Assembly (NCBI GenBank): GCA_964450735.1
Contig: CAYVDC010000007.1
Span: 1,374-65,373, forward strand
Length of the DNA stretch: 64,000 nt
Direction: 5' to 3'
Source: an uncultured Candidatus Saccharibacteria bacterium
Lineage (GTDB): Bacteria; Patescibacteriota; Minisyncoccia; Phycocordibacterales; UBA9973
Within the stretch, counting starts at the first letter, position 1. Each line of letters starts with the position of its first letter. Below are positions 29,246 to 54,280 of this stretch, piece by piece. A model generated the notes under the pieces. That model saw nothing but the letters and a program-made list of their open reading frames with translations, was not told the DNA's origin and did not search any database. Position numbers and translations under genes: made by a program.

Positions 29246-29935
29246 TTATTTTTTACGAAATAACAAAGTCGTTTCGCGTGAATCTATACCCTTAACATAG
29301 TTTTCGTTATTATCGCCGGTATAACCATTGATAGGTTCGAAACCAAGCAAATCCAATGTTTGTAATACAAACTCAATTGGGTGAACGTACATTACTACAT
29401 CATCTTCATCCAAAAAGTTATGTATTTTGCCTTGTGGAGAATTTGCCTTATAGATAAGTAAGTTAAAGCCTAACAATCCGCCTGACTTAAGCACACGAGA
29501 TGCTTCAGTGAAAGGGTGAAGTATATTCTCGATGTACATAAGTGCCGAACAGCAAGTAACCATATCGGCGGTTGCATTCGTTGCTGGCACAGTAGCAGTA
29601 CGCAAATCCATTTCAAATGCTTCAACAGTTATATTGTGCGAAGCAGTAAATTCTGGAAGTTGCGAAAGCATTCCTTCTGAAAAATCTGTTCCCAAGAATT
29701 TTGTAAATCCAAGTAGTGACAGTGTTACGATTGATGTTCCTGAACCGCAGGCCAAGTCTATTAAAAAACCATTTGGGATTTTAAAATCCTTTCCCATTTT
29801 CATTCGCACTAATGTAACTAGTGTTACCGCAATAGGAGAACCTCCCCTTTTACAAAATGCTAAATAGCTTAGGTACGTTTGTGGGTCGTTGTAGTATTCT
29901 TTTGTATCCATCTTTCTTTTGTTTTTCTTTACCAT
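29246..29935 (-). CDS. class I SAM-dependent methyltransferase
   Basis: Motif I LIDLACGSGTS; Rossmann-fold pattern. Confidence 0.65.
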   Translation of the reverse strand: MVKKNKRKMDTKEYYNDPQTYLSYLAFCKRGGSPIAVTLVTLVRMKMGKDFKIPNGFLIDLACGSGTSIVTLSLLGFTKFLGTDFSEGMLSQLPEFTASHNITVEAFEMDLRTATVPATNATADMVTCCSALMYIENILHPFTEASRVLKSGGLLGFNLLIYKANSPQGKIHNFLDEDDVVMYVHPIEFVLQTLDLLGFEPINGYTGDNNENYVKGIDSRETTLLFRKK

Positions 29936-34096: not shown

Positions 34097-36193
34097 TTAG
34101 ATATCGAGTTCCGCCATCTTGGCATGTGTCTGGATAAATGTTTTGCGAGGAGCAACATCAGATCCCATGAGCATGTCGAAGACTTTGTCTGCGTCAGCTG
34201 CGAGTTCGATGTTCACCTGTTTGATCACGCGTCGGCTTGGATCCATAGTTGTTTCCCAAAGCTCTTCGGCGTTCATTTCTCCCAAACCTTTGTATCGCTG
34301 AACGTTGATTTTGACTGCGCGAGGCTTTCCGTCTTTCATTTCAACGATCTCAACTTCTTCGCCTTCTTCTTCGCCAGATCCATCGCGTTCTGCTTGGGCA
34401 ACCATTTCGTCGAGGTCAACGTCTTTTTCTTGGCCCATGACGGCGACTTTTTCCTCGTCAGAATATGCATAGAAGATTTCCTTGCCTTTCTTGATCTTGT
34501 AGAGCGGCGGCTGAGCGATATAGATAAATCCACCATCAAGCAATGGCTTGAAGTATCGATACAAAAGCGTAAGGATCAGTGTTCGGATGTGCGCACCGTC
34601 AACGTCGGCATCGGTTGCGATGATGACCTTGTGGTAGCGAAGTTTTGAGATATCAAATGTGTCTCCGATCGCAGTTCCGAGAGCAACCACGAGGTTCTTG
34701 ATCTGTTCTGAAGCAAGCATGCGATCAAGGCGTGCTCGTTCAATGTTCAAGATCTTTCCTCGGAGCGGCAAGATAGCCTGTGTCTTTCGGTCACGGCCGG
34801 TCTTTGCAGTACCGCCCGCTGAGTCTCCTTCCACAATAAAGAGTTCGGATTCTTCGGCGCTCTTTGACTGACAGTCAGCGAGTTTGCCTGGAAGTGTCAT
34901 TCCCTCCAAAGCGCCTTTTCGCAAGATTGAATCCTTTGCAGCCTTTGCTGCTTTTCGAGCTCGCACTGCGAGAATCGCCTTGTTGATGATTGATTTTGCC
35001 TGATCTGGGTTTTCTTCAAGGAAGTTAGCAAATGCATCTCCGAAGACCGTTGCTACAGCGCCCTGAGCCTCCATAGAGCCGAGTTTAGCCTTTGTCTGGC
35101 CCTCGAACTGGATCTCAGCAAGTTTGACTGAGATGACCGCTGTAAGACCTTCAAGAACGTCTTCACCGGTAAATCCGCCGTCAGCTTCTTTGATGAGGTT
35201 ATTTTTCTTGCCGTAGGTATTGAGCAGGCGTGTAAGCGCAGTCTTGAAACCGGTTACATGCGTTCCGCCTTCGGGAGTATGGATGTTGTTCGCAAACGGA
35301 ACGATCTTGGTTTCGATTTCGTCGGTATATTGCAATGCAATTTCAACGCCAACATTATCCTGTTCTTTTTCAACATAGAAAACGGATTCCTGAATTGGCT
35401 TCAATCCTTGGTTGTAGTATTTGACCAATGACATCAAGCCACCTTCGAAATAGAACGAGTATGATGGGACTTCTAGCCCGAGGTCGCCAAACCAATATGC
35501 ATCGTCAAGTGAGAATTTCTTGTTGAACAATGTATCAGCATCCATCTCGCGTGCATCAATGATAGTGAGCTTCAAACCTTTGACGAGATATGCCTGCTGG
35601 CGCATGTGGTTGACCACGGTGCTCCAGGTGAACTTTACGCCTTCTTTGAAGATTTCTGGGTCAGGAGAAAATGTTGTGATCGTTCCATGCAATTTTGAAG
35701 AACCAACTTTTTTGACATTGGCTTTCTTTTTTCCCTGAGAGTACTCTTGCATAAAGATGCCGCCGTCTCGGTGAACTATTACCTTTGTGTATATTGAAAG
35801 CGCGTTAACAACAGAAGCACCCACACCGTGGAGACCTCCAGACACTTTGTAACCAGATCCTTCGCCGCCGAATTTTCCACCGGCATGAAGCGTGGTCATA
35901 ACCATTTCAAGCGCTGAAAGTTTTGTCTTTGGGTGAATGTCGGTTGGAATACCGCGACCATTGTCCACGACACGAATGAAGTTGTCAGGAAGAAGCGTGA
36001 TCTCGATGCGGTTTGCATGGCCAGCCATCGCTTCGTCGCGAGAGTTATCGAAAATTTCCCATATCAAATGGTGAAGACCATCAGGACCAGTTGATCCGAT
36101 GTACATACCAGGACGTTTTCGGACAGGTTCAAGTCCCTCGAGCACTTGGATTTGCTCGGCACCGTATTTAGCTTTCGATTCGTCTTTTGCCAT
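34097..36193 (-). CDS. gyrB: DNA gyrase subunit B (start placed at MAKDESKAKYG)
   Basis: GHKL ATPase (GLHHLIWEIFDNSRDEAMAGH), TOPRIM (EGDSAGG), acidic C-terminal insert. Start codon ATG is the revcomp of cat at 36191-36193. Confidence 0.9.
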   Translation of the reverse strand: MAKDESKAKYGAEQIQVLEGLEPVRKRPGMYIGSTGPDGLHHLIWEIFDNSRDEAMAGHANRIEITLLPDNFIRVVDNGRGIPTDIHPKTKLSALEMVMTTLHAGGKFGGEGSGYKVSGGLHGVGASVVNALSIYTKVIVHRDGGIFMQEYSQGKKKANVKKVGSSKLHGTITTFSPDPEIFKEGVKFTWSTVVNHMRQQAYLVKGLKLTIIDAREMDADTLFNKKFSLDDAYWFGDLGLEVPSYSFYFEGGLMSLVKYYNQGLKPIQESVFYVEKEQDNVGVEIALQYTDEIETKIVPFANNIHTPEGGTHVTGFKTALTRLLNTYGKKNNLIKEADGGFTGEDVLEGLTAVISVKLAEIQFEGQTKAKLGSMEAQGAVATVFGDAFANFLEENPDQAKSIINKAILAVRARKAAKAAKDSILRKGALEGMTLPGKLADCQSKSAEESELFIVEGDSAGGTAKTGRDRKTQAILPLRGKILNIERARLDRMLASEQIKNLVVALGTAIGDTFDISKLRYHKVIIATDADVDGAHIRTLILTLLYRYFKPLLDGGFIYIAQPPLYKIKKGKEIFYAYSDEEKVAVMGQEKDVDLDEMVAQAERDGSGEEEGEEVEIVEMKDGKPRAVKINVQRYKGLGEMNAEELWETTMDPSRRVIKQVNIELAADADKVFDMLMGSDVAPRKTFIQTHAKMAELDI

Positions 36194-36274
36194 AGTATGT
36201 ATGTTGATTATAAAAATAAAAAGCGCACCCGGAAACACTAGAAACAGTCGATTTGTACCTAAAAAGTATACCAT

Positions 36275-40613: not shown

Positions 40614-43229
40614 TTATGATGCAGGAGCGATTTCTGGAGTAGGTTCTGGGGCAGGTTCAGAAGCTGGTTCTGGAGCAGGTTCTGGGGTTGGTTCTACGGT
40701 AGGTTCTGGAGTTGGTTCTAGTGTCGGTGGGGTTTCTACCAGCGGCTCTTCTGTCACCGTTTCCGGCTGAGGTTCTGTCGGGGTTTCCGAAACAACTGGT
40801 TCTTCTTGCGGAACTGGTTGCTGTGTCTGGCCGCCAGAATTATAGTTGTTTTGCTGAGGCAATAGCTGCTTGAGCTGCTGAAGTTGCGCACGTGTTATAC
40901 ATTCATCCGCATATCCTTCTTCTGACAAACAAATTTCATGAGTAAATATTCGCGCGATGCCATTGCTTGCATTTCCCAACCATCCGCTGATCGATGACAA
41001 AAATGTGCTGCTTGGGGTTGTAAGAGTATCCATTGAAGCTACTTTCAAATTGAGCTCTTGGACTGATTTAATGAGCAACGGGATAAATGTCTTGTAATCA
41101 ACCATCATATATCCATCTGTTCGATGACCTACAGCCTCTGGATAGAGTGGCTCAACTTGCTGCGCCAAGACTCCGGTATGCTGCTTATTATTGTCATTGA
41201 TGATAGATTGATCGTACATAAAATCAACCACTCTGATATTTTTCAAAACATCCAAACCGTATGAGGTATCAATGATATTTTGTTTTGTGCGCTGGTCGGA
41301 AGGAGCGGTCGTATCAATTGTGTTTGTTCCAATATAGAGAGTAGATGAGCCTGAACCGCTAGTAACGTCGCTAATCTTGTTGCTATCGCTATCAACACCA
41401 ATACGGAGACCAGTACGGAAAAAGTTCTGTGCTTCAGCATCGTCAATAAAGAGAGCATACTCCATACCTGAAGTCCCCTGGAGTGACGCATTGCTGAAAT
41501 AAATACCATAGACATCCGCAGCAGTCAGTGAAGGAACATCCGTTACACCATCAAAGGTGCTGCTGAAATTTATACCTTTGATTAAGTTTATTGCTTCAAT
41601 ACCTGGCTGATAGACACTTCCTTGCATTCCAGAAGAAAAGTTGATTCCATTCGTACTAAAAATAGAACCGGTGTTTCGAATGAACGAAGTAAGATGCATA
41701 ACGTCCGCATTATTAACAATACCTCCACTCTGTACAGTCACTCGAGCATCAATTCCAAAAGCATTATTGATGGTTGCGCCCGAAACGTTACTTGAAACCA
41801 CACTGTTGATTCCATATGCAGTATTTACGACTCCGGTTGCACTTAAGTTGGTTACACTGCCGTTAATTCCTTTCATGGCGTTAACAGTTCCTGTTCCCAA
41901 ATTTCCCGCCAGATTGTTTAAGCCATACAAATTATCAATATTGCCGGAACCTTGATGAAGTGCAGTACTATTGATACCGTTCATATTACTGATTGTTCCA
42001 GATGAAGTAGGGCTTGAAGCAACAGAAGCAGTAATACCCGCTATTCCACCAGTACCTGAGGCAGTAGAAACGTTAAAAGCGCCACCGTCCCAAACTGTTG
42101 AACCTGAGAGCGTAGAATATGCGGTATTGGTTGTATTTCCGGTAGCAGTCAAGGTGCCTTCAAATGTATTAAAGGTTCGGTTTGTAGAAGATGCAACTTC
42201 TGTAGATGCAATACCTCTGAAGCGGCCATTTAATTTCAAACGAATTGAAGTTGCATCAGAATCTCCTTCCCAGTTATTGATGCCGAATGCCGAGTTTCCA
42301 TTTTTTAGAATAGTAAACGCATCATTTTTGTCTGGCCATACACCCAATAGTGAATTATTGCCCGAGTCATTATCTCCATTACCGATACTAAACACCCGGT
42401 CTGTCGGTGACAAAAATTGCCCCAAACCAAGTGGAGTCGGTGTGTAATCTGTTCCATATGCACCAATAGATGTTTCATATGCAGAACGAGCGAAACTGCT
42501 CTGTCCAAAAGCAGTTGAAGCATAACCCGAGGCAATAGTGTCATAACCAAAAGCTGTCGAAGCAGAGTTGCTTGCTAATGTACCCTGACCAAAAGCAGTT
42601 GAGTCTGAGCCTGAAGCGGTATTGCTTGTTCCAAACGCGGTTGCGTTTTCTTCAATAGCACTTGTTCGGTCTCCAAATGCAGTAGCATATGGGCCAGTCG
42701 CCTTTGTACCAACGCCCCATGCAGTCGAAAGCTGTCCAGAAGCAAAAGGATAATCATAGTTACCTGTGCTTCCGCCCCACGCCATCGCTCCTTGTCCAGA
42801 CGCTGTTACTGCAATATTGCCATTAGTATCTGGTCCAACAAGAACACCATCAGTGTAATTTCCAAATGCGATATTTCCATTTTGGCCAAACCGGCCTATT
42901 TCTGCTCCATTGGTTTTTACAACAAAATCTACAGCATCAGTTGTTCCGATGAAATTTGTTGTTCCTCCGTCAGTTCCTGCATCACCGGTAAGAGCCCACC
43001 CCACACCATCCCCAGTATTTTGATAACAGTTGGCACTGCCCGGAGCACATCCTGGATTGAGAATACTGTCACCTGCTGCATATCCGCCACTTGGTGGCGT
43101 TGTGCCATCAGCTAGTTGCGCACCAAACACAACCACTCCATATCCGACAATGGAAAGCAGTGTGATAAAAAAAGAAAGAATCTTTCGGTGGGAAAAAAAC
43201 AATGATTTCATGTACAAAAAGTATACCAC
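40614..43229 (-). CDS. secreted fibre-like surface protein, paralog 2 (same architecture as paralog 1; 871 aa)
   Basis: Conserved N-module LSIVGYGVVVFGAQLADGTTPPSGGYAAGDSILNPGCAPGSANCYQNTGDGVGWALTGDAGTDGGTTNFIGTTDA. Gly/Thr/Asn-rich repeats. S74 block SDQRTKQNIIDTSYGLDVLKNIRVVDFMY...TGVLAQQVE...IPLLIKSVQELNLK. Pro-rich tail PEPTVEPTPEPAPEPASEPAPEPTPE. Confidence 0.75.
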   Translation of the reverse strand: MVYFLYMKSLFFSHRKILSFFITLLSIVGYGVVVFGAQLADGTTPPSGGYAAGDSILNPGCAPGSANCYQNTGDGVGWALTGDAGTDGGTTNFIGTTDAVDFVVKTNGAEIGRFGQNGNIAFGNYTDGVLVGPDTNGNIAVTASGQGAMAWGGSTGNYDYPFASGQLSTAWGVGTKATGPYATAFGDRTSAIEENATAFGTSNTASGSDSTAFGQGTLASNSASTAFGYDTIASGYASTAFGQSSFARSAYETSIGAYGTDYTPTPLGLGQFLSPTDRVFSIGNGDNDSGNNSLLGVWPDKNDAFTILKNGNSAFGINNWEGDSDATSIRLKLNGRFRGIASTEVASSTNRTFNTFEGTLTATGNTTNTAYSTLSGSTVWDGGAFNVSTASGTGGIAGITASVASSPTSSGTISNMNGINSTALHQGSGNIDNLYGLNNLAGNLGTGTVNAMKGINGSVTNLSATGVVNTAYGINSVVSSNVSGATINNAFGIDARVTVQSGGIVNNADVMHLTSFIRNTGSIFSTNGINFSSGMQGSVYQPGIEAINLIKGINFSSTFDGVTDVPSLTAADVYGIYFSNASLQGTSGMEYALFIDDAEAQNFFRTGLRIGVDSDSNKISDVTSGSGSSTLYIGTNTIDTTAPSDQRTKQNIIDTSYGLDVLKNIRVVDFMYDQSIINDNNKQHTGVLAQQVEPLYPEAVGHRTDGYMMVDYKTFIPLLIKSVQELNLKVASMDTLTTPSSTFLSSISGWLGNASNGIARIFTHEICLSEEGYADECITRAQLQQLKQLLPQQNNYNSGGQTQQPVPQEEPVVSETPTEPQPETVTEEPLVETPPTLEPTPEPTVEPTPEPAPEPASEPAPEPTPEIAPAS

Positions 43230-43254
43230 AAAATGGTATATCAGTGCTTGTGGA

Positions 43255-45060
43255 TTAACGAATTTGCCAGCCCTCGTGGCCTTCGATCACCTTCTGAATG
43301 CTTTCCATGATTGGATTTATCTCTGCATCGGTCAATGTTCGGTCTATAGCCTGGAAAACAAGGTGAAATGCATATGAGGTTCGCCCTTCTTTGGTAAATT
43401 GGTCGAAGAGGTCTGGCTCGCGCGCAAGAAGAGCGGTTCCCAATTTTGTATACAGCGACTTTAATTCTTCTGAAGTTACACTTTCTGGGACCCAGACAGC
43501 AATATCGCGGGAAATAAATGGGTACTGGCTCCACTGAATAAAATGCTGCGTATTTTCATTTGTCGGAAGAATTTTTTCGTATGAATCCCCTGCGGTTATC
43601 ACATTCTTTTCGCAGAATTCTTCGAGGGTCATTTCTATTACTCCTTTTTTGTCTGCAAAAGCAACATGAACAATCTCGCCTTCTTTTGGAAACACCGTTC
43701 CAATTTCAAAAATCTTCATGTCAGAAATTCCAAGGAGCGGCGCATTCAAGCGATTCATTTCATATGCCTCTTTCAGTCCTTCTGCGAGGTCTGTTCTGAG
43801 CGCACCTTTATCGCCAACCCCGCGCGCAACTTCGAATATTCCCTTTTTGCGGAATGCATAGGTGATCGTTTCGCGGTAACCATCAGCAACAAGCTTTGCG
43901 CGAGCTGCATTCATTTTGTAAAAAATTTCGTTCTTTTTTGGATTTGGAGGTAGTTCAACTGGAACAGCCTGGATTTTTTCTAATCCATACAGTCTTGCAA
44001 CTTCTTCGGCAATGTCGTGCTGTCCGGTGAGATCAAGACGTAGATATGGAACAGCCAATGTCCCAATATCTCCTACTCCGGATATCTGATATCCATAATC
44101 AGTCAGTATCTTTATTATTTCCCCTTCCGTGAGAGCAGTGCCAAGATACTTATTTATTTTAGAAATTGAAAAATTCACTACGCGACCAATTTCAGGTTTT
44201 GGGTAGACGTCGACGATTTCTTCAAAAACAGCATCAGGACACATTTCAGCAATAACTGCACTCAAGTCGCGCATTCCCCATGGAGCATGTTCAGCAAAAA
44301 GATCATTCTCAAATCGCTTTGCAGAATCAGAAAGCAAGTTCAAACGACGTGCAGTTTTACGAACAGCGACAGGATCAAAGTTCGCGACTTCGAGAACAAT
44401 GTCAGTCGTTGTGTCAGTAACTCCAGAATCAAGTCCCCCCTTCACCCCTGCAAGCGCGAGCGGTTTTACAAAATCCATAACCACAGTATCCGTAGCTTTC
44501 AATTTGGCGACTACTTGCTCACGTCCGAGAACCGGCAGCTCCTGTCCTTCGCTGGCATTGGTAATACGAATGCCTCCTTCAATTTTTGAAAGATCAAACG
44601 CATGGCATGGCTGTCCGCAATCGTACATGACCAGGTTTGTTGCGTCGACGATGTTATTAATCGAGCGTTGGCCGATTGATTCGAGATGCTTCACTATCCA
44701 TTCCGGTGATGGACCAACTTTGATATTGCGAACTATTCGCCCCATATATCGTCGGCAATTTTCTGTTTGAATTTCAATTTTGAGTTCAGTTGGTTTTGAT
44801 TCTGGAACTTTATAGAGAGGAGTTGGGTCTTTGAATTTGAAACCGAGAAGTCCGGCGACTTCTTTTGCCACGCCGTGGTGCGAAAGCAAATCATGTGCAC
44901 GGTTTGGAAGAATATTCAAATCCAAAACAGTATCGCCGTTCGGCAATTTTTCGATGCCTTCCACTTCGCAGAGTTTGAACGTCAAAATATCTGCCAACAC
45001 TTCAGGAGTTGGAAGCTCGCCGTCTACATACCATTTAAGCCAGTCGTAAGAAATTTTCAT
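43255..45060 (-). CDS. pheT: phenylalanyl-tRNA synthetase beta subunit (short form, 601 aa)
   Basis: MKISYDWLKWYVDGELPTPEVLADILTFKLCEVEG is the PheT N-terminus; B3/4 and B5 regions recognisable. Confidence 0.9.
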   Translation of the reverse strand: MKISYDWLKWYVDGELPTPEVLADILTFKLCEVEGIEKLPNGDTVLDLNILPNRAHDLLSHHGVAKEVAGLLGFKFKDPTPLYKVPESKPTELKIEIQTENCRRYMGRIVRNIKVGPSPEWIVKHLESIGQRSINNIVDATNLVMYDCGQPCHAFDLSKIEGGIRITNASEGQELPVLGREQVVAKLKATDTVVMDFVKPLALAGVKGGLDSGVTDTTTDIVLEVANFDPVAVRKTARRLNLLSDSAKRFENDLFAEHAPWGMRDLSAVIAEMCPDAVFEEIVDVYPKPEIGRVVNFSISKINKYLGTALTEGEIIKILTDYGYQISGVGDIGTLAVPYLRLDLTGQHDIAEEVARLYGLEKIQAVPVELPPNPKKNEIFYKMNAARAKLVADGYRETITYAFRKKGIFEVARGVGDKGALRTDLAEGLKEAYEMNRLNAPLLGISDMKIFEIGTVFPKEGEIVHVAFADKKGVIEMTLEEFCEKNVITAGDSYEKILPTNENTQHFIQWSQYPFISRDIAVWVPESVTSEELKSLYTKLGTALLAREPDLFDQFTKEGRTSYAFHLVFQAIDRTLTDAEINPIMESIQKVIEGHEGWQIR

Positions 45061-45063
45061 AAC

Positions 45064-45966
45064 TTATAAATCAAAAAAATCAGTATCGATTTTATATATT
45101 TTTAACTCTTGTTCTTGGGTTACCCCTAAACCAACACTAAGCATTAACTCGGCCAGCTTTTCCCCATTAATAAGCACAATCTGAACATGGGAAATTGCAG
45201 CAACAGAAACAGCATCATTATTGAAATCAGAGGTAGTAATAAAAACGCCTTTCTTTGCATTTTTACCTAAAATATCTCCGATAAATTGCGACACTTCCCT
45301 TCGGCCAACCTTATTACCCCATCTTTTGGCTTGTACATATATTTTTTCAAACCCGAGATGGTCCCCCTTAATAATACCATCTATACCACCATCACTTGTA
45401 TAGCGGGTAACTTCGCCGACGCCGTACCCCATTTTAACCAATAAATCTACGACTAATTTTTCAAATAATTGAGGATGCATGGATGCCACTTTTTCCAAAA
45501 TCTCTTCCTTTACAAGATCATTGATTTTGTTTACATTGGCAATTATATTTTCTTGAGGAGTAATATTTGAATCTTCCGAAACATCTTCGCCTTCGCTCCT
45601 ATTTTTTTCATCCTTATTTCCCCAGGTCTTCACATCCCAAAAATCAGGAAATTTCTTTAGATCTTTGACACTTAAACTTGTTAGGTTTTGTTTTAGTAGA
45701 TCTAGCCCCCTTTCTGTAATAATATATTTCCTTTTCTCCTGTGTTTTATCTATCAGCTTCGCTTTAAAAATAAAAGTTCTTGCCCATGCCAGTCTGTCGA
45801 GAAAAATTTTTCTTCCTGGAGTGTTTGGATATTGGGCGTTTTTATCTTCATCAGTCAAATGAACCTTTTGGGCAATAACATCTTCAAAAACCTGCCAATC
45901 ATGCGGCTGGCCATCCTTAAAGCATTCTAATAATGGGAGCATCAGCTCATTAAATTTGGGAATCAT
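45064..45966 (-). CDS. mrr: Mrr-family restriction endonuclease (Mrr_N winged-helix + Mrr_cat PD-(D/E)xK nuclease)
   Basis: The C-terminal block EKLVVDLLVKMGYG...YTSDGGIDGIIKGDHLGFEKIYVQAKRW is the Mrr_cat signature (D...IDG...E.K, VQAKR). The N-terminal winged-helix-like region (MIPKFNELMLPLLECFKDGQPH...) resembles Mrr_N. The gene sits 4 nt from the pheT start and 14 nt from the pheS stop. Confidence 0.8.
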   Translation of the reverse strand: MIPKFNELMLPLLECFKDGQPHDWQVFEDVIAQKVHLTDEDKNAQYPNTPGRKIFLDRLAWARTFIFKAKLIDKTQEKRKYIITERGLDLLKQNLTSLSVKDLKKFPDFWDVKTWGNKDEKNRSEGEDVSEDSNITPQENIIANVNKINDLVKEEILEKVASMHPQLFEKLVVDLLVKMGYGVGEVTRYTSDGGIDGIIKGDHLGFEKIYVQAKRWGNKVGRREVSQFIGDILGKNAKKGVFITTSDFNNDAVSVAAISHVQIVLINGEKLAELMLSVGLGVTQEQELKIYKIDTDFFDL

Positions 45967-45979
45967 AAAAATTATTTAT

Positions 45980-46702
45980 TTACCATTGATTAATTCTCAA
46001 ATCTCCCTGATACAGGAATCGCACATCGGAAATATCGTACTTCACCATGAGAATGCGATCTACTCCTCCGCCGAATGCAAAGCCCTGATATTTTTCAGGA
46101 TCAATGCCGGCGTTTTTGAGAACATTCGGATGAATCATTCCCGCACCCATGACTTCGAGCCATCGGTTGCGGAATTTGATCCAGACTTCGAGACCTGGTT
46201 CAACGAATGGGAAATAGCTTGGTCGCAATTGAATTTCAACATCTTCGCCAAGCAAACCACGGTAGAGTTTCAAAAGCGTGTCTTTGAGATTTCCAAGATT
46301 GATATTTTCTCCGATTGCGCAGCCGTCTACCTGGAAGAACTGCATTTCGTGAGTGGCATCAGTAGCTTCGTTTCGGAATACTTTTCCGACTGAAACATAG
46401 CCGCATGGAAATGAATCATTTTTTACTGCCTGTTCGAGTGCGCGTGACGTTGCGTTGGTTGCATGCGTTCGCATGACCATTCCCTCTTGGTTTTTGATAT
46501 AAAACGTGTCCTGCATGTCGCGAGCCGGATGGTCTTTGGAAACGTTCAGCGCGTCGAAGTTATACCATTCAGTTTCCATTTCAGGACCGATAGCAACTTC
46601 AAAGCCAAGTTTGTCGAAAATGCGAACGATATCGTTCGTCATGATGGTGATGGGATGCAATTTTCCTTTTTCGTTGTTCATATTATTTATGCTTGCTTCC
46701 AT
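45980..46702 (-). CDS. pheS: phenylalanyl-tRNA synthetase alpha subunit (catalytic core only, 240 aa)
   Basis: HPITIMTNDIVRIFDKLGFEV...SKDHPARDMQDTFYI, FRNEATDATHEMQFFQVDG and GGGVDRILM are PheS class II motifs. Confidence 0.9.
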   Translation of the reverse strand: MEASINNMNNEKGKLHPITIMTNDIVRIFDKLGFEVAIGPEMETEWYNFDALNVSKDHPARDMQDTFYIKNQEGMVMRTHATNATSRALEQAVKNDSFPCGYVSVGKVFRNEATDATHEMQFFQVDGCAIGENINLGNLKDTLLKLYRGLLGEDVEIQLRPSYFPFVEPGLEVWIKFRNRWLEVMGAGMIHPNVLKNAGIDPEKYQGFAFGGGVDRILMVKYDISDVRFLYQGDLRINQW

Positions 46703-46992
46703 TCAAGTTTATAACTCCCTCCTGATTTTTTGTGGAGTTTATACGTATATCCCTTTGCTTCAAATTTATAATAGTTATTACCTCCTGGTTCAGTGCCATT
46801 TTTTAGGGCTTTAAACATTTCTTCAGCTTCTTTGTGGTGTTTATGGAGATAGTCCAAAGCATGCTTCATATGGCCCATGTGGTTGGTCTTGTAGACGACT
46901 GAATGGGTCAGAATACTATCTTCGCCCATTCCTGAAGGTTCTGGGCTTTCTTTGGCTGGTCCTGGTTGGTCTTCGTAATCGTAATCATCCAT
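46687..46992 (-). CDS. small His-rich hypothetical protein
   Basis: 101-aa ORF (HMGHMKHALDYLHKHHKEAEEMF), overlaps pheS start by 16 nt; weak. Confidence 0.3.
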   Translation of the reverse strand: MDDYDYEDQPGPAKESPEPSGMGEDSILTHSVVYKTNHMGHMKHALDYLHKHHKEAEEMFKALKNGTEPGGNNYYKFEAKGYTYKLHKKSGGSYKLEWKQA

Positions 46993-47029
46993 ATATCCAC
47001 TATATCATAAAGCTATTCCAATAAAAGCC

Positions 47030-50000
47030 TTACTTCGCAACCTTGCTCAAACCATAAATATCCTTGGCTAGCTTGCAGTACGGACACTCAGTTTGTTGTC
47101 CAAACGGCTTAAATGAACACGGACGGTGTATCCATTCCCTGCTTGCAACCGAACCATCATAATCCTTGATATCGCGGACGAGCGAATCTATCTGTTCTTC
47201 GCCAATATGCGTACGATATACCGCATCTTTGCTCTTTGGATCTTCTTCGAGATACAGAAGTTGTGATTCAATAACTCGAGATTCTTTTTCTACACCCTGA
47301 ATTAAATAGGTGTACATAACGAGCTGTCGCAAATAGCCACTCAATCGTCCTTCTTCGGTTTCTTTTTCGATTGCAGATTTTGTCTTAGAAGATCCTGTTT
47401 TGAAATCAATCACGCGAACAGTTCCATCGGGAAAACGTTCAGTGAGGTCGATCTTTCCATACATCGTAAGGTTTGGAAATGTTTTGTCATGGAACGACAG
47501 CGGCCGCTCAGTATCTCGTTTCTTTTCAAGCGTTGGCAAATATTTTTCTGAAAAATTGGCCAGGACGGTTTTTGCTTGCGCAAACAATCGCTCGCGCGTT
47601 TTTCCGTCAAGAATAAACTCGCGCTCGATTGCTTCTTCAAAAACCGCCTCGAGTTCTTTTTCTGAAACTTTTTTCGGAGCAGAAAGAATACTGTCGAGTC
47701 CGGCATGAACAATCGTTCCAAATATCAAGCTTTCTGTTTTTGGTTCTGGCAGCTGGAGGAAGTTTCGGAAATACCATTTCCATGGGCATTCGAAGAAGTT
47801 ATTTAGAAGCGTTACGGAGACTTTAGTTTTTGAATATTCTTCTTTGACGCTTTCAGTCAATTTCTCAATCTCGCTTTCATCAACTGCTTTTGCCTGCTTG
47901 GAAACATACATTCGGATATCGCTTGCTTCAAATTCTTTGCGAGTGTCTTCGAGTGTTTTGCGAGTGAAGTGCTTCTCAGGAATATCCATCACGACATGGG
48001 CAATCTCTTGCTCACCGCCCGTGTGATTGGAACGCGAATATGAGAGCGTGCAAAATCGCTTTGCTCGAGTGAGGGCAACATAGACTTCCCTTTTTACCAC
48101 TGCTTGGTCTTTGGATTCAATTTTTGCTTCCACTGATTCCGGCAAGGTAAATCCCATGCGCTTGCCGCTCATGAGCGTCTTTTCGTTCATATGGGCAATC
48201 CAGACGAAATCGAATTCCAATCCTTTGGAAGCATGGAAGGTCATGACGCGAATACCTGAAACGCCGGAAATAGTTGCGACCGGTATATGAGCGCCGTAGC
48301 TTTCAAGACGATCGAGGTATTCCAAGAAGCCGGCAAGTGTAAGTTTTGAATTGCGCTCACGGCTCGTCAGTATCAAGTGCAAAAACGTTCGAATAATTTC
48401 AACTCGGCGAATCAATGTTTCGTGATCGGTAGAAGATTTCAAAAAGAGCTCATCGCCGATTTTTTGAACGAGTGAATAAATGTCAGACTTCCCTGCTTCA
48501 TTTACCAAATCACCGAGGACTTTGCCCCATGTCGCAACTGGATTAATTTCCGCAAACAAATTTCCAGCTGCTTCAGCGCTTGAAAGAGAATAAACGGAAA
48601 GATCGCGGGACTTAGTTTCTCTTAGAAATGTATGAGCTTCCAAAGGCTTTACCCCTGAAATCGGATCAAGGAGCGATTGACCGACTGCAACTGCATTGTA
48701 TGGATCATTGACGATTGAGAGTATGCGGCGTAGTGAGGCGGTCTCGGAAAGATCAAAGAATGAGATAGATTCGTCCGCGCGGACCGGGAGGCCCAAGTCA
48801 CGAAGGATGGTTACCCCCGCGCGGACGTGCTTATTCTTTGGAACCAAAACTGCGCATTCCTTTGGTTCCAATCCATTTTTGATTGCTGCCTGTATTGCAA
48901 GCCCGGCTGCCAGAATTTCATCCCGTGGATATTGATATTCGGCAAGCGTGAGCTCATGATTTTCTTTGTGGTTGCTTCGCAATTTTTCTGTCGCCAATGT
49001 GCTCGCCAAAAGCGCATCGGCAGTATCGAGGATTTTTTGCGTTGAGCGGTAATTTTCTACCAGCGTAATTAACTTCGCTTTTCCGAATGCAGTTTTAAAA
49101 TCCTCAAAGTAAGCAAGCGATGCGCCGCCAAATCCGTAAATCAATTGTCGGTCATCTCCCACTACAAAAATATTCGGCTTCTCTTCCCCCTGCCAAACCG
49201 CTTTTAAAAACGAATTTTGAATACCGCTTGAGTCTTGGTGTTCGTCAACCAAAACATAGAGATAATCTTCCCGCAGCGTCGCGCTGACATCTTCGGAATT
49301 CTGAACAAGGGTAACCGCATATTCAAGCACATCATCATAGTCCATGAGTCCGCGGTCGCGTTTTGTCTTTTCATAGAGTTCGTAAAATCGAACAACTTCA
49401 CGGGTTCGCTCCAGGCCTTCGATTTTTTTCTCCACTTCTTTTTTTAGCTGGCCCTTTGATTCACCGCGAGTTGAAATGCTTGCTGGATCATTTTTGAATT
49501 CGGAAATCGAATTTTCAATTTCTTGCAAAAAATCGGCAGGGCTTAATCGTTCGCGCTTGAGAAGCGAGACAAGTGATTTGAGATCATTGAAATAGAGCGC
49601 AGAGTTTCCACGCGGGCGCAAATACTCCCATTCATTTTCATGAAGCATTTCATCCACCAGTAATACGGCTTCCCGCTCATCGAGCAATTTCGGCGTAATT
49701 TCAAAATCTAAGAATTCGTAGTTCTTTTCTATCAGTCCGATGGCAAAGGCATGGAATGTTGTAATACGAACATTGCCGGCGGCCGATCCGATGAAGCTGA
49801 AAAGGCGTTCCCTCATTGCGGACACGCCGGCGTTCGTAAACGTAAGACAGAGAATCCCCCCTGGAGGCGTATCAGTCTTTTGGAGGATATTAGCGATGCG
49901 AAGCGAGAGAACCTGGGTCTTTCCAGTTCCAGGACCAGCAACTACCATCACAGGACCGTCTATGGCGTCTACTGCCTGCCGTTGGGCTGGATTGAGTTTG

Positions 50001-50035
50001 GTAAGGGCTTTTTCGAAGGCTTCGCTGGTTGGCAT
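47030..50035 (-). CDS. UvrD/PcrA-family ATP-dependent DNA helicase fused to C-terminal RecB/Cas4-like PD-(D/E)xK nuclease domain with Cys cluster
   Basis: N-terminal Walker A (AGPGTGKTQV), UvrD motifs (VDEHQDSS, FVVGDDRQLIYGFGGAS, MTFHASKGLEFD). The C-terminus has ECPWKWYF...GTIVHAGLD...Y-x-EL motifs and a terminal CxxC (C-X-Y-C) plus upstream Cys, the Cas4/AddB-style Fe-S nuclease arrangement. Confidence 0.8.
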   Translation of the reverse strand: MPTSEAFEKALTKLNPAQRQAVDAIDGPVMVVAGPGTGKTQVLSLRIANILQKTDTPPGGILCLTFTNAGVSAMRERLFSFIGSAAGNVRITTFHAFAIGLIEKNYEFLDFEITPKLLDEREAVLLVDEMLHENEWEYLRPRGNSALYFNDLKSLVSLLKRERLSPADFLQEIENSISEFKNDPASISTRGESKGQLKKEVEKKIEGLERTREVVRFYELYEKTKRDRGLMDYDDVLEYAVTLVQNSEDVSATLREDYLYVLVDEHQDSSGIQNSFLKAVWQGEEKPNIFVVGDDRQLIYGFGGASLAYFEDFKTAFGKAKLITLVENYRSTQKILDTADALLASTLATEKLRSNHKENHELTLAEYQYPRDEILAAGLAIQAAIKNGLEPKECAVLVPKNKHVRAGVTILRDLGLPVRADESISFFDLSETASLRRILSIVNDPYNAVAVGQSLLDPISGVKPLEAHTFLRETKSRDLSVYSLSSAEAAGNLFAEINPVATWGKVLGDLVNEAGKSDIYSLVQKIGDELFLKSSTDHETLIRRVEIIRTFLHLILTSRERNSKLTLAGFLEYLDRLESYGAHIPVATISGVSGIRVMTFHASKGLEFDFVWIAHMNEKTLMSGKRMGFTLPESVEAKIESKDQAVVKREVYVALTRAKRFCTLSYSRSNHTGGEQEIAHVVMDIPEKHFTRKTLEDTRKEFEASDIRMYVSKQAKAVDESEIEKLTESVKEEYSKTKVSVTLLNNFFECPWKWYFRNFLQLPEPKTESLIFGTIVHAGLDSILSAPKKVSEKELEAVFEEAIEREFILDGKTRERLFAQAKTVLANFSEKYLPTLEKKRDTERPLSFHDKTFPNLTMYGKIDLTERFPDGTVRVIDFKTGSSKTKSAIEKETEEGRLSGYLRQLVMYTYLIQGVEKESRVIESQLLYLEEDPKSKDAVYRTHIGEEQIDSLVRDIKDYDGSVASREWIHRPCSFKPFGQQTECPYCKLAKDIYGLSKVAK

Positions 50036-50082
50036 AGGGCTATTTTAGCATGAGTAGGAACGCCCAGATACACCTGGACAGA

Positions 50083-51384
50083 TTACAATAATGCTTCTCC
50101 AATTTGATAAGCTTCCCCTGCGCCCATGGTCACCAACACATCATTGGGGCCAAGATTTCTGCGCTGCAATGTTTCGAAAGCTTCCTGGAATGTATCAAAT
50201 GCATCGGCATTGATTTTGTGTCCGCGGATTTTTTCGGCGAGCATTTCGCTTGATACACTTCCGTCGTTTTCTTCGCGTGCGGCGTAGATCGGAAGAATGA
50301 TCACATGATCAGCCTGTGTAAATGATGCACCAAAATCATCGAGCAATAATTTTGTTCGTGAATACAAATGCGGTTGAAATACTACCGTAACTTCTTTTTG
50401 TCCATACGGATAAATTTCACGGAAGCCCTGCAGTGTTGCGGTAATTTCGGTTGGGTGATGAGCATAATCATCGTAGACGGGGGTTCCGCTTTTCAATTCT
50501 CCTTTGTATTCAAAACGTCTCCATGTTCCAGGAAATGTTGCAAGATATTTATCAGCAGTAAATTCCTCTACGCCAATAAGGCTGACCGCTGCTCCTGCTG
50601 CAGCCGCATCTGCCTGGTTGTGCGCGCCTGGAATTTTCAATTCGCGCGCGTGATAAAAATCATGGTAGTTCACAATCTGTGCCTGCACGCCGGAAATTAC
50701 TTCTTTTACCACTTCATCATTTGCGTTACAGACAATGTATCCATCGGCTGGAACTTTTTCACAGAGCTCGCGAAACGCGCTCTTGATATCGGCAATGTCC
50801 TTGTAGTAATCAAGATGATCTGCTTCGATGTTCGTAATAACCAAAATCTTTGGATTGATATTCAAAAATGATCGGCGATATTCACAAGCTTCAACCACAA
50901 AGTATTCGCTCTTGCCCGCCATGAAATTGCTTTTCTCATTTACCATGAGCGAACCCACAATAACCGTAGGATCCTTGCCAGCATTTTTCATAACATGCGC
51001 GATCATTGCCGTCGTTGTAGTTTTGCCGTGTGTTCCCGCGACGGCGATCGTATACTTGCCTTCGGTAACAATATGGAGCATCTGGGGGTATGAGCGGGTT
51101 GGAATAGTTCCTGACTGGAGTGCGGCGAATAACTCTGGATCATAATTTTCGATAGCAATCGTATAAACGATCAAATCAACGTCCTTTGGAATAAGATCAA
51201 TACCCTGTCCGATCTTCACGATCGCGCCGGCGTCCCGCAATTCCTTCACTACTTCCCCTTCAGAAACATCAGAACCTATTACCTCTTTACCCTCCTGCAA
51301 AAACATCCGAGCAACAGCCGAAATGCCAATGCCGCCAATGCCGACAAAGAAGACTTTTTTGATTGTACTTAGATTTAATTCCAT
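50083..51384 (-). CDS. murC: UDP-N-acetylmuramate--L-alanine ligase
   Basis: VFFVGIGGIGISAVARMFLQEGKEVIGSD, AGTHGKTTTTAMIAHV. Confidence 0.9.
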   Translation of the reverse strand: MELNLSTIKKVFFVGIGGIGISAVARMFLQEGKEVIGSDVSEGEVVKELRDAGAIVKIGQGIDLIPKDVDLIVYTIAIENYDPELFAALQSGTIPTRSYPQMLHIVTEGKYTIAVAGTHGKTTTTAMIAHVMKNAGKDPTVIVGSLMVNEKSNFMAGKSEYFVVEACEYRRSFLNINPKILVITNIEADHLDYYKDIADIKSAFRELCEKVPADGYIVCNANDEVVKEVISGVQAQIVNYHDFYHARELKIPGAHNQADAAAAGAAVSLIGVEEFTADKYLATFPGTWRRFEYKGELKSGTPVYDDYAHHPTEITATLQGFREIYPYGQKEVTVVFQPHLYSRTKLLLDDFGASFTQADHVIILPIYAAREENDGSVSSEMLAEKIRGHKINADAFDTFQEAFETLQRRNLGPNDVLVTMGAGEAYQIGEALL

Positions 51385-51947
51385 AATTTTTCAATTAATT
51401 TCTTTTCAATTTGATCCGTCTCTGTCTCTGATTTTATAACAAAAAATTCATCAAATAACGAAGCTTCTGGGGGCTGCATTCTAGTTTTCTGTTTCTCAAT
51501 CAATTCTTTAAAATCTTTTGTGATTCGAAGTACATTCGTCGATCGTTCTGATTTTTCAATTCGGTTCAAAACCAGTTCTTCTGGGAGTTCAAAATATACA
51601 CAGATAGTTTTATATTGAAATTTTTTTGCCAATTCTAAAACCAACTCGCGACCTTTAATCCACATATTCGAATTAGAAAGTACAATCGGCTTTCCCAGAG
51701 CCATAGTAAACTCAACAAACAATAAAAAAGTTCTGAACTTTAGGGCAATGTTGCTAAATAAGCCATTGTGCTCTGCATCATCTACTTCTCTCAATTTTGG
51801 AAATTGCTCTTTCATAAAAACCGCAATCGGGTCGGCTTCGAGGATAATTAGATCCTTTACTTTTTCTTCAATTTTCCTTGCGAGCGTTGTCTTGCCGGAG
51901 TGAGTCTTGCCAACAAACATTATTAAGATTTTGCCTTTATTATCCAT
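51375..51947 (-). CDS. P-loop NTPase / predicted small kinase (AAA_33 or zeta-toxin-like fold)
   Basis: Walker A FVGKTHSGKTTLA near the N-terminus; 190 aa; overlaps the murC start by 10 nt and abuts murD. Confidence 0.5.
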   Translation of the reverse strand: MDNKGKILIMFVGKTHSGKTTLARKIEEKVKDLIILEADPIAVFMKEQFPKLREVDDAEHNGLFSNIALKFRTFLLFVEFTMALGKPIVLSNSNMWIKGRELVLELAKKFQYKTICVYFELPEELVLNRIEKSERSTNVLRITKDFKELIEKQKTRMQPPEASLFDEFFVIKSETETDQIEKKLIEKLWN

Positions 51948-51948
51948 A

Positions 51949-53292
51949 TTATTTCAACCCCTTAATTATCTTCACAAACTGCTCTCCTCGATCATACTCA
52001 TTCTTGAACAATTCAAACGATGAGAACGCTGGCGAGAACAAAACAATATCACCCTTTTGTGCTGACTTCACAGCTCTTGCCACCTGCTTCTTCAGGTCAA
52101 GTTCTTCGCTAAAGGTGAATCCCTTCTGCGCAAGCAGCGGCTTTAATTTTTCGGTTCCAGAACCTTTCAATAATACAACCTGGTTTGCGAACTCTGGAAT
52201 TGCGTTTGCAAGTGCTTTTGCATCAAGGGCTTTGTCGGTACCACCAGCAAGGAGGATGAGGTTATGGGGTTTTGCGAGCGGGGCGAGCGCAGCGAGCCCC
52301 GCCACGCATGCCTCAGGAGTGGTCGCACAAGTATCATTGAAAATCGAAATTCCTTTGTACTTTCGTACAAACTCCAAGCGTCCCGGTACGCCCTTGAATG
52401 ATTCGACGGCTGCTTTGATTTTTGTCTCAGGGATTTTTAAATATCGCGCAACAGCAACAGCACATGAAGCATTTTCTCGTACATGCTCACCTGGGGTTTT
52501 AAGCTTCCAGTTTTTTGGAATGTCAGCGCTTGTTGTGGCGATCAACTTCCCTTTCGTTTTGCCTTTTACCAACGGCATTAGCGCCGATCGAACAACTAAA
52601 ACGTCGTCTTTTTTTTGATGCAGAAATATCTGCGCCTTGTCTTTAAAATAGAGATCAATATCGTTCTTGTAGTAATTCATGTGATCAGGCATGAAGCTCG
52701 TGAAAACAGCAATCTCAGGAGAAATTTGTGCCTCGCCAAATCCTTGCAACTGCCATGAAGATAATTCAAACACAACGAAATCGCCTTTTTTGACTTTTGA
52801 CAGGAGTGGGAGTGCCGCAGTGCCTTTGATATTTCCGCCAAGATGCGCGCGCTTGCCTGATTTTTTGAGAATATGGTAAATCAGTTCAGTCGTAAATGTT
52901 TTGCCTCGCGTGCCGGTAATACCGATCATGCGAACGTCCGGAGCAAATTTGAAAAACAGCGTTTCGTCCATTTCGATCGGAATGCCATTTTTTCTCGCAT
53001 GGGCAATATACAGAGAATCCAACGGAACTCCTTGGCCTTTGATGATAAAATCTTTGTTCTCAAAATCCTGCATGCGATGCTCGCCCAAAACAAAGGTAAT
53101 ATTTTTGTATCCCTTGAGCGCATCGATCGATGACTTTAGTTCTTTTGCGGTTTTAAGGTCTGTGACGGTAACCGAGGCGCCGTTTTTTGAGAGGAACTGG
53201 ATATCACCCAAAAGCTTGCCCAAAAGGCCAAGGCCCAGGACGGTGACCTGTTTCCCTTTGCAATAGGCTCTGAAATCCTTGGCTGACTGCAT
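51949..53292 (-). CDS. murD: UDP-N-acetylmuramoylalanine--D-glutamate ligase
   Basis: VTVLGLGLLGKLLGDIQFLSKNGASVTVTD, GITGTRGKTFTTELI. Confidence 0.9.
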   Translation of the reverse strand: MQSAKDFRAYCKGKQVTVLGLGLLGKLLGDIQFLSKNGASVTVTDLKTAKELKSSIDALKGYKNITFVLGEHRMQDFENKDFIIKGQGVPLDSLYIAHARKNGIPIEMDETLFFKFAPDVRMIGITGTRGKTFTTELIYHILKKSGKRAHLGGNIKGTAALPLLSKVKKGDFVVFELSSWQLQGFGEAQISPEIAVFTSFMPDHMNYYKNDIDLYFKDKAQIFLHQKKDDVLVVRSALMPLVKGKTKGKLIATTSADIPKNWKLKTPGEHVRENASCAVAVARYLKIPETKIKAAVESFKGVPGRLEFVRKYKGISIFNDTCATTPEACVAGLAALAPLAKPHNLILLAGGTDKALDAKALANAIPEFANQVVLLKGSGTEKLKPLLAQKGFTFSEELDLKKQVARAVKSAQKGDIVLFSPAFSSFELFKNEYDRGEQFVKIIKGLK

Positions 53293-53320
53293 ATACTGCC
53301 TATTTTACCATATTTGCCAA

Positions 53321-54280
53321 TTATTGCTTTGGCAGCTTGAAATGAGTCACATGCTTATCGCCAGTGTACTCAGCTTCAAAATTGTCTTCTCCCAACACGA
53401 CAGGATGAATCTTTTTAACAAGGAATCCTGTGCCTCGTTTCATTCGTCGAATAAGGAACCAGAGTCCGACTGAAACAAGGACAATGATCACGAGGATGTA
53501 GATAAGGAACGGCATTATGTAACAGACAAAAAATGAATTTGAGATTGGCTGAACTTTGACTTGGTACATTACGCGCGAAATCACTTCAACCATTTTGGCA
53601 TCTCGCTCAATCAATTCTTTTTTTGAAAGTGTTTCGACGGTAGCCGCATCAAGATATTGTGGAACATACGTTGAAAATGCTTCGGTTGCGAACGCGTGCT
53701 GGCTTTTTGCCTTGCCGAGCCATTTTGGCTTTTCGAGAGAAATACGGAACGTGTCCCCGCTTGCGCTTACATGAAGATAATAGTTCGTTGGCACAAACCC
53801 CCACTTTTTTGCAGGCTGGAGATAATACATATCGATCTTTCCATCAAGAATATATACAGATCTCAAACGCAGATCATTGAGCGCTGCATTTTGGATAACA
53901 TCAACAATTTTTTCTTTGGTGTTTACTGGATCAGCTCCCAAATTCCATTCAGTCGGAAGCGTTTCGCCAGCCTTGCATTGATCTCCAACTCCTTGTTCGT
54001 CAACAAGAAGATGCGTATCGAGCTTTACGGCGATAGTCGGCGTGCCAGGAGTAACCGGTGGTGTTGTTGGCTGTTCAACATGGGCTCCAGTTGTTGGGCC
54101 ATAGTCCAAGTCCGGAATTACTGGAACAGAACCTGGGACATACACTGTTCCAGGAGGAGTTGGTCGTGGATCAGTCCATCCAGCAGGATGATCAATATCA
54201 GGAATTACCACCTGAGCAAGCGCAACCACCGGAAACAAAAGAGCGAGTAAGAAAAAAATACGGATAGATTTCATGAACAT
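53321..54280 (-). CDS. hypothetical secreted/membrane protein (signal peptide, Pro/Thr-rich region, C-terminal TM)
   Basis: ORF with N-terminal signal (FFLLALLFPVVALAQ) and C-terminal TM. Confidence 0.45.
   Translation of the reverse strand: MFMKSIRIFFLLALLFPVVALAQVVIPDIDHPAGWTDPRPTPPGTVYVPGSVPVIPDLDYGPTTGAHVEQPTTPPVTPGTPTIAVKLDTHLLVDEQGVGDQCKAGETLPTEWNLGADPVNTKEKIVDVIQNAALNDLRLRSVYILDGKIDMYYLQPAKKWGFVPTNYYLHVSASGDTFRISLEKPKWLGKAKSQHAFATEAFSTYVPQYLDAATVETLSKKELIERDAKMVEVISRVMYQVKVQPISNSFFVCYIMPFLIYILVIIVLVSVGLWFLIRRMKRGTGFLVKKIHPVVLGEDNFEAEYTGDKHVTHFKLPKQ

Follow-up and report, generated by a model that had tools for sequence, protein, structure and literature searches.

Mrr of Escherichia coli K-12 (EcoKMrr, b4351) is the founding type IV methyl-directed enzyme. 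A nuclease gene placed between conserved genes is known from phage T4, where mobE, a free-standing homing endonuclease gene, lies between nrdA and nrdB. Core genes also bound the horizontal-transfer hotspots and replacement-type flexible islands, a concept reportedly set out by Oliveira, Touchon and Rocha in 2017. The subject here is mrr, a gene for a 300-residue Mrr-type endonuclease found between pheS and pheT, which encode the alpha and beta subunits of phenylalanyl-tRNA synthetase (PheRS). The gene lies in a 64,000-nt stretch (the window) of contig CAYVDC010000007.1 from a Patescibacteria metagenome-assembled genome (MAG); the window covers only 64 kb of that genome, and all coordinates refer to it unless a contig is named. 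We consider it highly probable that mrr encodes a functional-looking, solitary Mrr enzyme that was recently acquired, sits in a polymorphic slot, arrived by recombination and is expressed by read-through.

The three genes run head to tail on the minus strand as pheS (46702-45980), mrr (45966-45064) and pheT (45060-43255). The ORF map, Pfam matches and the sequence itself confirm the claim of the first-pass annotation that a 300-aa Mrr open reading frame (ORF) stands exactly between pheS and pheT. A 13-nt spacer, ATAAATAATTTTT (45967-45979), separates the pheS stop codon from the mrr ATG, and a 3-nt spacer, GTT (45061-45063), separates the mrr stop codon from the pheT ATG. The spacers are as tiny as first described, and their lengths are corrected here from 14 and 4 nt. 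The 3-nt spacer resembles the tight pheS-pheT geometry of relatives without an insert, in which spacers are mostly 1-20 nt.

Two Mrr domains account for the protein. The Mrr_N winged-helix domain (residues 5-93; 45688-45954, minus strand), presumed to be the sensor of modified DNA, is seen in the AlphaFold model and matches PF14338 over profile positions 1-87 of 87 (E = 4.6e-19; 68.8 bits against a cut-off of 29.5). The Mrr_cat PD-(D/E)XK-type nuclease domain (residues 161-275; 45142-45486, minus strand) matches PF04471 over profile positions 2-115 of 115 (E = 7.7e-36; 123 bits against a cut-off of 21), and is also recovered by Foldseek and by a PDB profile search. Residues 2-299 match positions 3-315 of 317 in the PADLOC mREase_IV profile PDLC03657 (E = 3.8e-63), and BLASTP aligns the same residues colinearly with residues 3-304 of EcoKMrr (NC_000913.3) at 31% identity.

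The catalytic residues of E. coli Mrr are motif I E172, motif II D199/D203, motif III Q219/K221 and the helix residue E231 (PMC2790908). The D203A protein is a catalytic mutant, and activation of the enzyme is a tetramer-to-dimer transition (PMC5435990). Pairwise alignment matches E. coli F171/E172, D199/D203, Q219/K221 and E231 with F168/E169 (motif I; 45460-45465), D192/D196 and Q212/K214 (motifs II and III, D192-GGI-D196 ... Q212-A-K214; 45325-45393) and the helix glutamate E224 (45295-45297), all on the minus strand. F168, E169, D192, D196, Q212 and K214 are invariant in homologue alignments of 18 and of 30 sequences. The intact nuclease core reported at first pass is thus borne out by both the E. 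coli and the 30-homologue alignments, in which the catalytic residues are all kept. A degenerate active site was ruled out by the retention of every motif I-III residue.

The AlphaFold model has a mean predicted local distance difference test score (pLDDT) of 83.6, with values of 86-97 over residues 1-110, and in it a winged-helix N-domain leads through a poorly ordered linker (residues 115-128) and a long helix to an alpha/beta nuclease core. The best Foldseek matches in the PDB are the modification-dependent enzymes MspJI and AspBHI, an Mrr-like RPB5 N-domain and AF1548. Among PDB sequences, a profile search returned the Mrr-family nuclease of LlaBIII (4xqk, E = 2e-6) and MspJI (E = 1e-3); a single-sequence search of Mrr against PDB chains gave no match. 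The gene is solitary: its immediate neighbours are pheS and pheT, no methyltransferase gene adjoins it, and the sole methyltransferase among the scanned window ORFs is a generic small-molecule-type S-adenosylmethionine (SAM) methyltransferase 15 kb away (29246-29935). Judged by its sequence, the middle ORF is a canonical, intact Mrr-type type IV (modification-dependent) restriction endonuclease. It is functional-looking, and we infer its enzymatic activity and specificity.

The context of mrr was compared with the 80 best pheS loci from species-representative genomes, each taken as a 12-kb locus, with pheS-pheT counts made over 77 of them. All 80 loci come from MAGs of Patescibacteria (candidate phyla radiation, CPR), under labels that vary among Paceibacterota, Nomurabacteria and 'Saccharibacteria'. 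No Mrr homologue was found anywhere in these 80 loci, and 81 loci lack it in the slot when the strain-level relative L088, described below, is included. The check for lineage specificity in related pheST loci that had been proposed at the outset therefore returned the insert in 0 of 80 related species. A conserved association of Mrr with pheST was ruled out by the same count, the closest Mrr homologues examined being in other contexts.

Alignments to two close relatives fix the boundaries of the insertion. The closest representative, L007, has a PheS 97%, a PheT 80% and an upstream-encoded UvrD-nuclease 92% identical to those of the window, and its pheS-pheT junction reads TAA-TTAT-ATG. Exact look-up of PheS retrieved L088, a 23.8-kb Logan contig of ERR15976506 that encodes an identical PheS. 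L088 and the window align colinearly (93.9% nucleotide identity) in two segments, 50702 to the pheS stop codon (45980) and the pheT ATG (45060) to 41327. The alignments to L007 and L088 end at 45974 and 45980 and resume at 45061 and 45060, respectively, which delimits a variable slot from the pheS stop codon to the pheT start codon (45061-45979, minus strand). In L088 a 266-nt segment with an 85-aa ORF (L088 4728-4985) replaces mrr; the slot of L009, a more distant relative, contains a 91-aa ORF (L009 6761-7036) that shares 57% identity with the 85-aa one. This small clade thus presents three slot states: empty (L007 and L008), filled by the 85-91-aa gene (L088 and L009) and filled by mrr (the window). 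The 85-91-aa protein carries a WDPI motif and has a sub-threshold similarity to DUF1871 (E = 0.07); L088 and L009 share it without being nearest neighbours of each other. Exact look-up gave no record for PheT or for a 233-aa form of PheS, scans of Joint Genome Institute (JGI) metagenome contigs for exact matches to the 3' end of pheS and the 5' end of pheT returned none, and a literature search on pheS-pheT insertions found nothing relevant.

Interruption of this gene pair extends to the wider set of relatives. The pheS and pheT orthologues are co-directional, and the pheT start lies a few nucleotides from the pheS stop in 53 of 77 related species. The remaining 24 hold 170-3100 nt between the two genes; the corresponding distance in the window is 919 nt. 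The main ORF in the gap is on the same strand as pheST and close to its neighbours in 23 of the 24 occupied slots, and the gap has a lower G+C content (GC) than its own locus in all 24. About 20 unrelated cargo types fill these slots. They include SET-domain proteins (four loci), PemK/MazF-like toxins, 23S_rRNA_IVP four-helix-bundle proteins with inverted arms of 22-37 nt, and nucleoside-deoxyribosyltransferase-like proteins (Nuc_deoxyrib_tr) (two loci each), single cases of an NYN nuclease, an EamA transporter, a PQ-loop protein, an RNA polymerase (RNAP) alpha-CTD-like protein and a TerC/MsrB/MsrA block, and many proteins without a family. Clustering found only five shared cargo families, a sixth cluster consisting of antisense ORFs, which indicates that most insertion events were independent. 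The alignments identify the pheS|pheT junction in this clade as a permissive, polymorphic slot.

Some of the slots carry inverted repeats. The arms around the 23S_rRNA_IVP genes (L040 6788-6824/7646-7682; L015 6710-6731/7074-7095) are built of short AGT/ACT-rich units and recall rRNA intervening-sequence elements, though outside rRNA. The pheS-pheT spacer of L051 resembles a solo remnant of such an inverted arm. Spacers of about 130 nt in L028 (4601-4736) and L056 (2560-2694) have terminal inverted repeats sharing GAATCCCGTTAGA...TCTAACGGG; these two different genomes appear to hold a small palindromic element resembling miniature inverted-repeat transposable elements (MITE) or repetitive extragenic palindromic (REP) sequences.

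The composition and relationships of mrr set it apart from its surroundings. Its GC is 0.360 and its third-codon-position GC (GC3) 0.309, compared with a window mean of 0.433, and only two of the 54 ORFs are poorer in GC. The nearest Mrr relatives are 47-51% identical, and the window allele is a singleton (cluster size 1) in a database of 5.8 billion proteins. Of the four nearest relatives, three were examined for genomic context. The genes of two start directly at a type I hsdR stop codon, and that of the third has an unrelated setting. Absence from the 80 relatives, the distance of the nearest homologues and low GC together identify mrr as a recent horizontal acquisition, apparently specific to one lineage of a Paceibacteria/Nomurabacteria-type Patescibacterium.

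The flanks of mrr bear on its route of arrival. No terminal repeats or target-site duplication surround the gene, repeats between 44960 and 46080 being short and at chance level, and no integrase or transposase gene adjoins it, the neighbouring ORFs being pheS and pheT. None of these hallmarks of a transposon, insertion sequence (IS), integron cassette or integrative element was found at mrr, and transposon- or integrase-borne arrival is unlikely. Identity between L088 and window 41327-50702 is a mosaic of alternating blocks, some fully identical (150-900 nt) and others at 77-90%, a pattern in the alignment that indicates frequent homologous recombination in this Patescibacteria population. 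Approaching the slot, 950 identical nucleotides are followed by a 166-nt stretch at the end of pheS (45980-46145, minus strand) with 12 synonymous differences, a candidate left end of a recombination tract by this single comparison. Beyond the unrelated cargo, a single difference occurs in the first 392 nt of pheT. This flank pattern is suggestive of a recombination tract with crossovers within pheS and right at the beginning of pheT. Arrival would most likely have been by homologous recombination with a related donor, the conserved pheS and pheT serving as arms for allele or cassette replacement.

Independent contigs support the assembly across the locus. The 1217-nt Logan contig L001 (SRR12404947) is 100% identical to window 46136-44920 and covers the pheS 3' end, the entire mrr gene and the pheT 5' end, and L090 from the same run is 100% identical to window 50992-46115. 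An assembly chimera was ruled out by L001, which spans both junctions, and by L090 upstream. The first-pass annotation had named a degenerate active site and a chimeric assembly beforehand as the ways in which it could fail; both were tested and neither was found. The SRR12404947 contigs break on either side of the cassette, at 46115-46136 and at 44920. These breaks may reflect graph branching from slot alleles that co-exist in the sample, or simply low coverage.

Expression of mrr would depend on its neighbours. Across 42800-50300, promoter-like and terminator-like sites are no more frequent than in shuffled sequence, and a consensus scan found no terminator-like site in either mrr spacer. 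A promoter-like TTGAGA-18-AATAAT (46000-45971) overlaps the pheS 3' end and the spacer; such sites occur at chance rate. A promoter or terminator belonging to mrr itself was rejected, none being distinguishable from chance. From about 33 kb to 64 kb the minus strand carries almost every predicted gene, spacers are very short, and in such a tightly packed, co-directional array nearly any surviving insertion would look operon-borne. The tiny spacers and the lack of terminator-like sites make co-transcription of mrr with pheST plausible. Most likely, mrr would be expressed by read-through from the upstream co-directional array, and translation of pheT would restart 3 nt after the mrr stop codon, mimicking the native pheS-pheT geometry. 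By homology, the winged helix would recognize modified (methylated) DNA and the PD-(D/E)XK-type domain (E169, D192, D196 and Q212-x-K214) would cut it, so that the enzyme could act as a solitary type IV barrier against phage or other foreign DNA with methylation patterns absent from the host.

The first-pass annotation had offered two functions for the position within pheST. One is that embedding in an essential operon makes mrr hard to lose. In the form weighed here, pheT would rely on transcription and translational restart through mrr, and disruption of mrr would be polar on pheT. The 13-nt and 3-nt spacers without a terminator-like site are compatible with this, and the co-directional cargo in 23 of the 24 occupied slots suggests that only operon-compatible insertions survive. 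However, the slot is gained, lost and swapped among close relatives, which means that recombination can readily remove or replace its content precisely; type IV enzymes, a modification-dependent and not modification-blocked family, work without the cognate methyltransferase that addiction would need, and no such gene adjoins mrr, so post-segregational killing does not arise; and the less constrained UvrD|pheS junction is interrupted more often (37/44 compared with 24/77), so the position is not favoured. Retention of this kind is unlikely. Hitch-hiking survives in the weak sense that mrr would borrow transcription from its neighbours, whereas the addiction logic is not supported, given a slot that is emptied and refilled among relatives and the missing methyltransferase. 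The other proposal was a domesticated nuclease with a translation-related role, taken here to include tRNA biology and co-regulation with PheRS, for which the pheS-pheT position is the sole argument. The gene is absent from 80 related species and from the 94%-identical strain, it has the architecture and all the motifs of Mrr enzymes that target DNA, type I hsdR adjoins two of the three closest homologues examined, its low GC marks a foreign gene, and the other slot cargo is functionally unrelated to translation. The phyletic pattern and the defence context of the two homologues leave domestication close to refuted, and we assign it almost no probability.

Selfish, homing-like spread, in which the nuclease would cut insert-free pheS|pheT alleles, accords with a precise intergenic insertion between conserved essential genes without transposon hallmarks, and the flank pattern against L088 resembles co-conversion. 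Pfam nevertheless assigns Mrr-family domains only, with no HNH, GIY-YIG, LAGLIDADG or His-Cys box domain; the allele is a database singleton that does not occur in the slot of 81 other loci; and the many non-nuclease cargoes show that a nuclease is unnecessary for insertion. Spread of this kind is very improbable. A somewhat less remote reading, though still improbable, is that mrr is a decaying passenger, intact only because it is recent, unexpressed or inactive in this host and destined for loss. The singleton allele, a GC that has not drifted and a 13-nt upstream spacer with no Shine-Dalgarno-like sequence are in keeping with decay. The ORF, however, is full length without a frameshift and keeps its catalytic and structural invariant residues, and the native pheS and pheT also lack an obvious Shine-Dalgarno sequence, which makes its absence before mrr uninformative. 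Several points weigh against our preferred interpretation of a recently acquired, functional-looking solitary Mrr expressed by read-through. This allele is known from a single sequence, so purifying selection is not measurable, and mrr could be a recent arrival on its way to loss. Transcript, activity and specificity are all predicted. The recombination tract is drawn from one pairwise comparison in a generally mosaic locus. With 64 kb of the genome in view, compatibility of Mrr with the host methylome is presumed.

The two PheRS genes that flank the slot are themselves of reduced form. pheS (45980-46702, minus strand) encodes the short CPR form of the alpha subunit with 240 aa (Pfam tRNA-synt_2d, E = 2e-84) and scores above the NCBIfam cut-off (TIGR00468, 262 bits against 237). 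Alignments with homologues begin only at residue 7-13, which makes the in-frame ATG at 46681 the probable true start. pheT (43255-45060, minus strand) encodes a 601-aa beta subunit with Pfam B3_4, B5 and FDX-ACB domains and full-length matches in 77 relatives. It scores just under its NCBIfam cut-off (TIGR00472, 393 bits against 403) because the N-terminal tRNA-binding domain is missing, as it is in all 77 relatives. PheS of 233-240 aa without the N-terminal coiled coil and PheT without its N-terminal tRNA-binding domain are features common to all of these relatives.

Upstream of pheS lie a 101-aa ORF and the UvrD-nuclease gene, both on the minus strand. The 101-aa ORF (46687-46992) has no Pfam, NCBIfam or PADLOC match and overlaps the annotated start of pheS at its stop codon. 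Homologues occur in the closest relatives only (83% identity in L007, 51% in L008 and 100% in L088), and the ORF appears to be a lineage-restricted filler. The next gene (47030-50035) encodes a 1001-aa UvrD helicase with a C-terminal PD-(D/E)XK (Cas4/AddB-like) nuclease (Pfam UvrD-helicase, UvrD_C and PDDEXK_1). In most of the 80 loci a homologue of this gene precedes pheS, and the PADLOC GajB matches of this protein reflect generic UvrD helicase similarity. A nuclease or defence island was ruled out, since the UvrD-nuclease is conserved synteny and its 101-aa neighbour is without matches. The fusion described at first pass is real, but the claimed enrichment in nucleases gives way to conserved core synteny in which proximity to mrr is coincidental. 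The UvrD-nuclease|pheS junction is interrupted in 37 of 44 loci (counting same-strand, near full-length homologues of at least 40% identity), compared with 24 of 77 for pheS|pheT in the same set of loci. A special hotspot at pheS|pheT was ruled out, the neighbouring junction being interrupted more often.

Other junctions in the window vary as well. A 190-aa ORF for an AAA_33/zeta-toxin-like P-loop kinase (51375-51947, minus strand; GC 0.34; weak PADLOC VakA match) stands between murD (51949-53292) and murC (50083-51384), flush with both genes and overlapping the start of murC. L008, where murD and murC overlap, lacks this ORF, a second low-GC, single-gene insertion within an operon. In L007, positions 666-1375 align with window 53319-54025, and murC is directly preceded by a homologue of window ORF 53321-54280; at this point L007 lacks the stretch that carries murD and the AAA_33 gene in the window. 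Between pheT and gyrB (34097-36274), the segment 36341-43229 (minus strand) encodes three large secreted proteins of 790, 561 and 871 aa, two of which have YadA_head repeats and a Peptidase_S74 (endosialidase chaperone) domain. In L008 gyrB comes immediately after pheT, and the 7-kb secreted-protein block is thus variable as well. A further secreted-protein paralogue lies at 60110-62494.

The locus is one in which single accessory genes are gained and exchanged between co-directional core genes, and the pheS|pheT junction is merely unprotected. A highly conserved bacterial adjacency is broken in about one-third of related Paceibacteria, usually by AT-rich, co-directional single genes, and the same boundaries, exact to the base, enclose different cargo in two strains of 94% nucleotide identity. 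Reduced genomes built of long co-directional arrays can gain and exchange accessory genes without recognizable mobile elements. For annotators, the caution is that a position in an essential operon implies no functional link in these lineages. The enzyme itself is unremarkable and adds one more Mrr-family type IV member to the CPR/Patescibacteria defence repertoire; mrr is a known-family gene in an unusual but explicable position, a product of normal gene turnover and not a new translation-linked nuclease. A broader and more tentative idea is that pheS|pheT, murD|murC and similar junctions are population-level cassette slots in Paceibacteria-type Patescibacteria, in which single promoter-less accessory or defence genes are swapped between strains by homologous recombination in the essential flanking genes and expressed parasitically on the transcript of the operon. 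We hold this to be less likely than ordinary flexible-genome behaviour. If so, the cargo would comprise Mrr, MazF-like toxins, NYN nucleases, SET proteins and hairpin-flanked 23S_rRNA_IVP genes, and the slots would represent a distinct, operon-embedded mode of flexible genome in ultra-small genomes without classical islands and integrases.

Among described systems, EcoKMrr is one of the closest to the window protein. At 304 aa compared with 300 aa, it has the same Mrr_N and Mrr_cat domains and the same series of a motif I glutamate, motif II D...D, motif III QxK and a downstream glutamate. The window protein and its three closest relatives differ from EcoKMrr in lacking 5 residues after the MGYG motif. 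The settings differ too, as E. coli mrr adjoins hsdR in the immigration-control region. The Mrr homologues at type I restriction-modification operons (P0002 and P0003; loci L002 and L004) are 48-51% identical to the window protein with the same domains; their genes begin at the hsdR stop codon in defence loci (Methylase_S, SduA_C and Hypoth_Ymh), whereas the window gene has no defence neighbours. MspJI/AspBHI and LlaGI/LlaBIII share the catalytic fold and motifs, and only the C-terminal half is comparable; the other modules of these enzymes are an SRA-like domain and a helicase plus methyltransferase, respectively. Like mobE-type genes, mrr is a nuclease gene exactly in the spacer of two conserved essential genes, but it belongs to another nuclease family, comes without evidence of spread and shares its slot with non-nuclease cargo. 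In genome organization, the locus has a parallel in hotspots and replacement-type islands, which likewise hold differing cargo between two core genes with mosaic flanks and without an integrase or repeats. The pheS|pheT slot differs from these in working at the scale of single genes (0.1-3 kb) and in lying inside a gene pair that is elsewhere highly conserved and translationally coupled.

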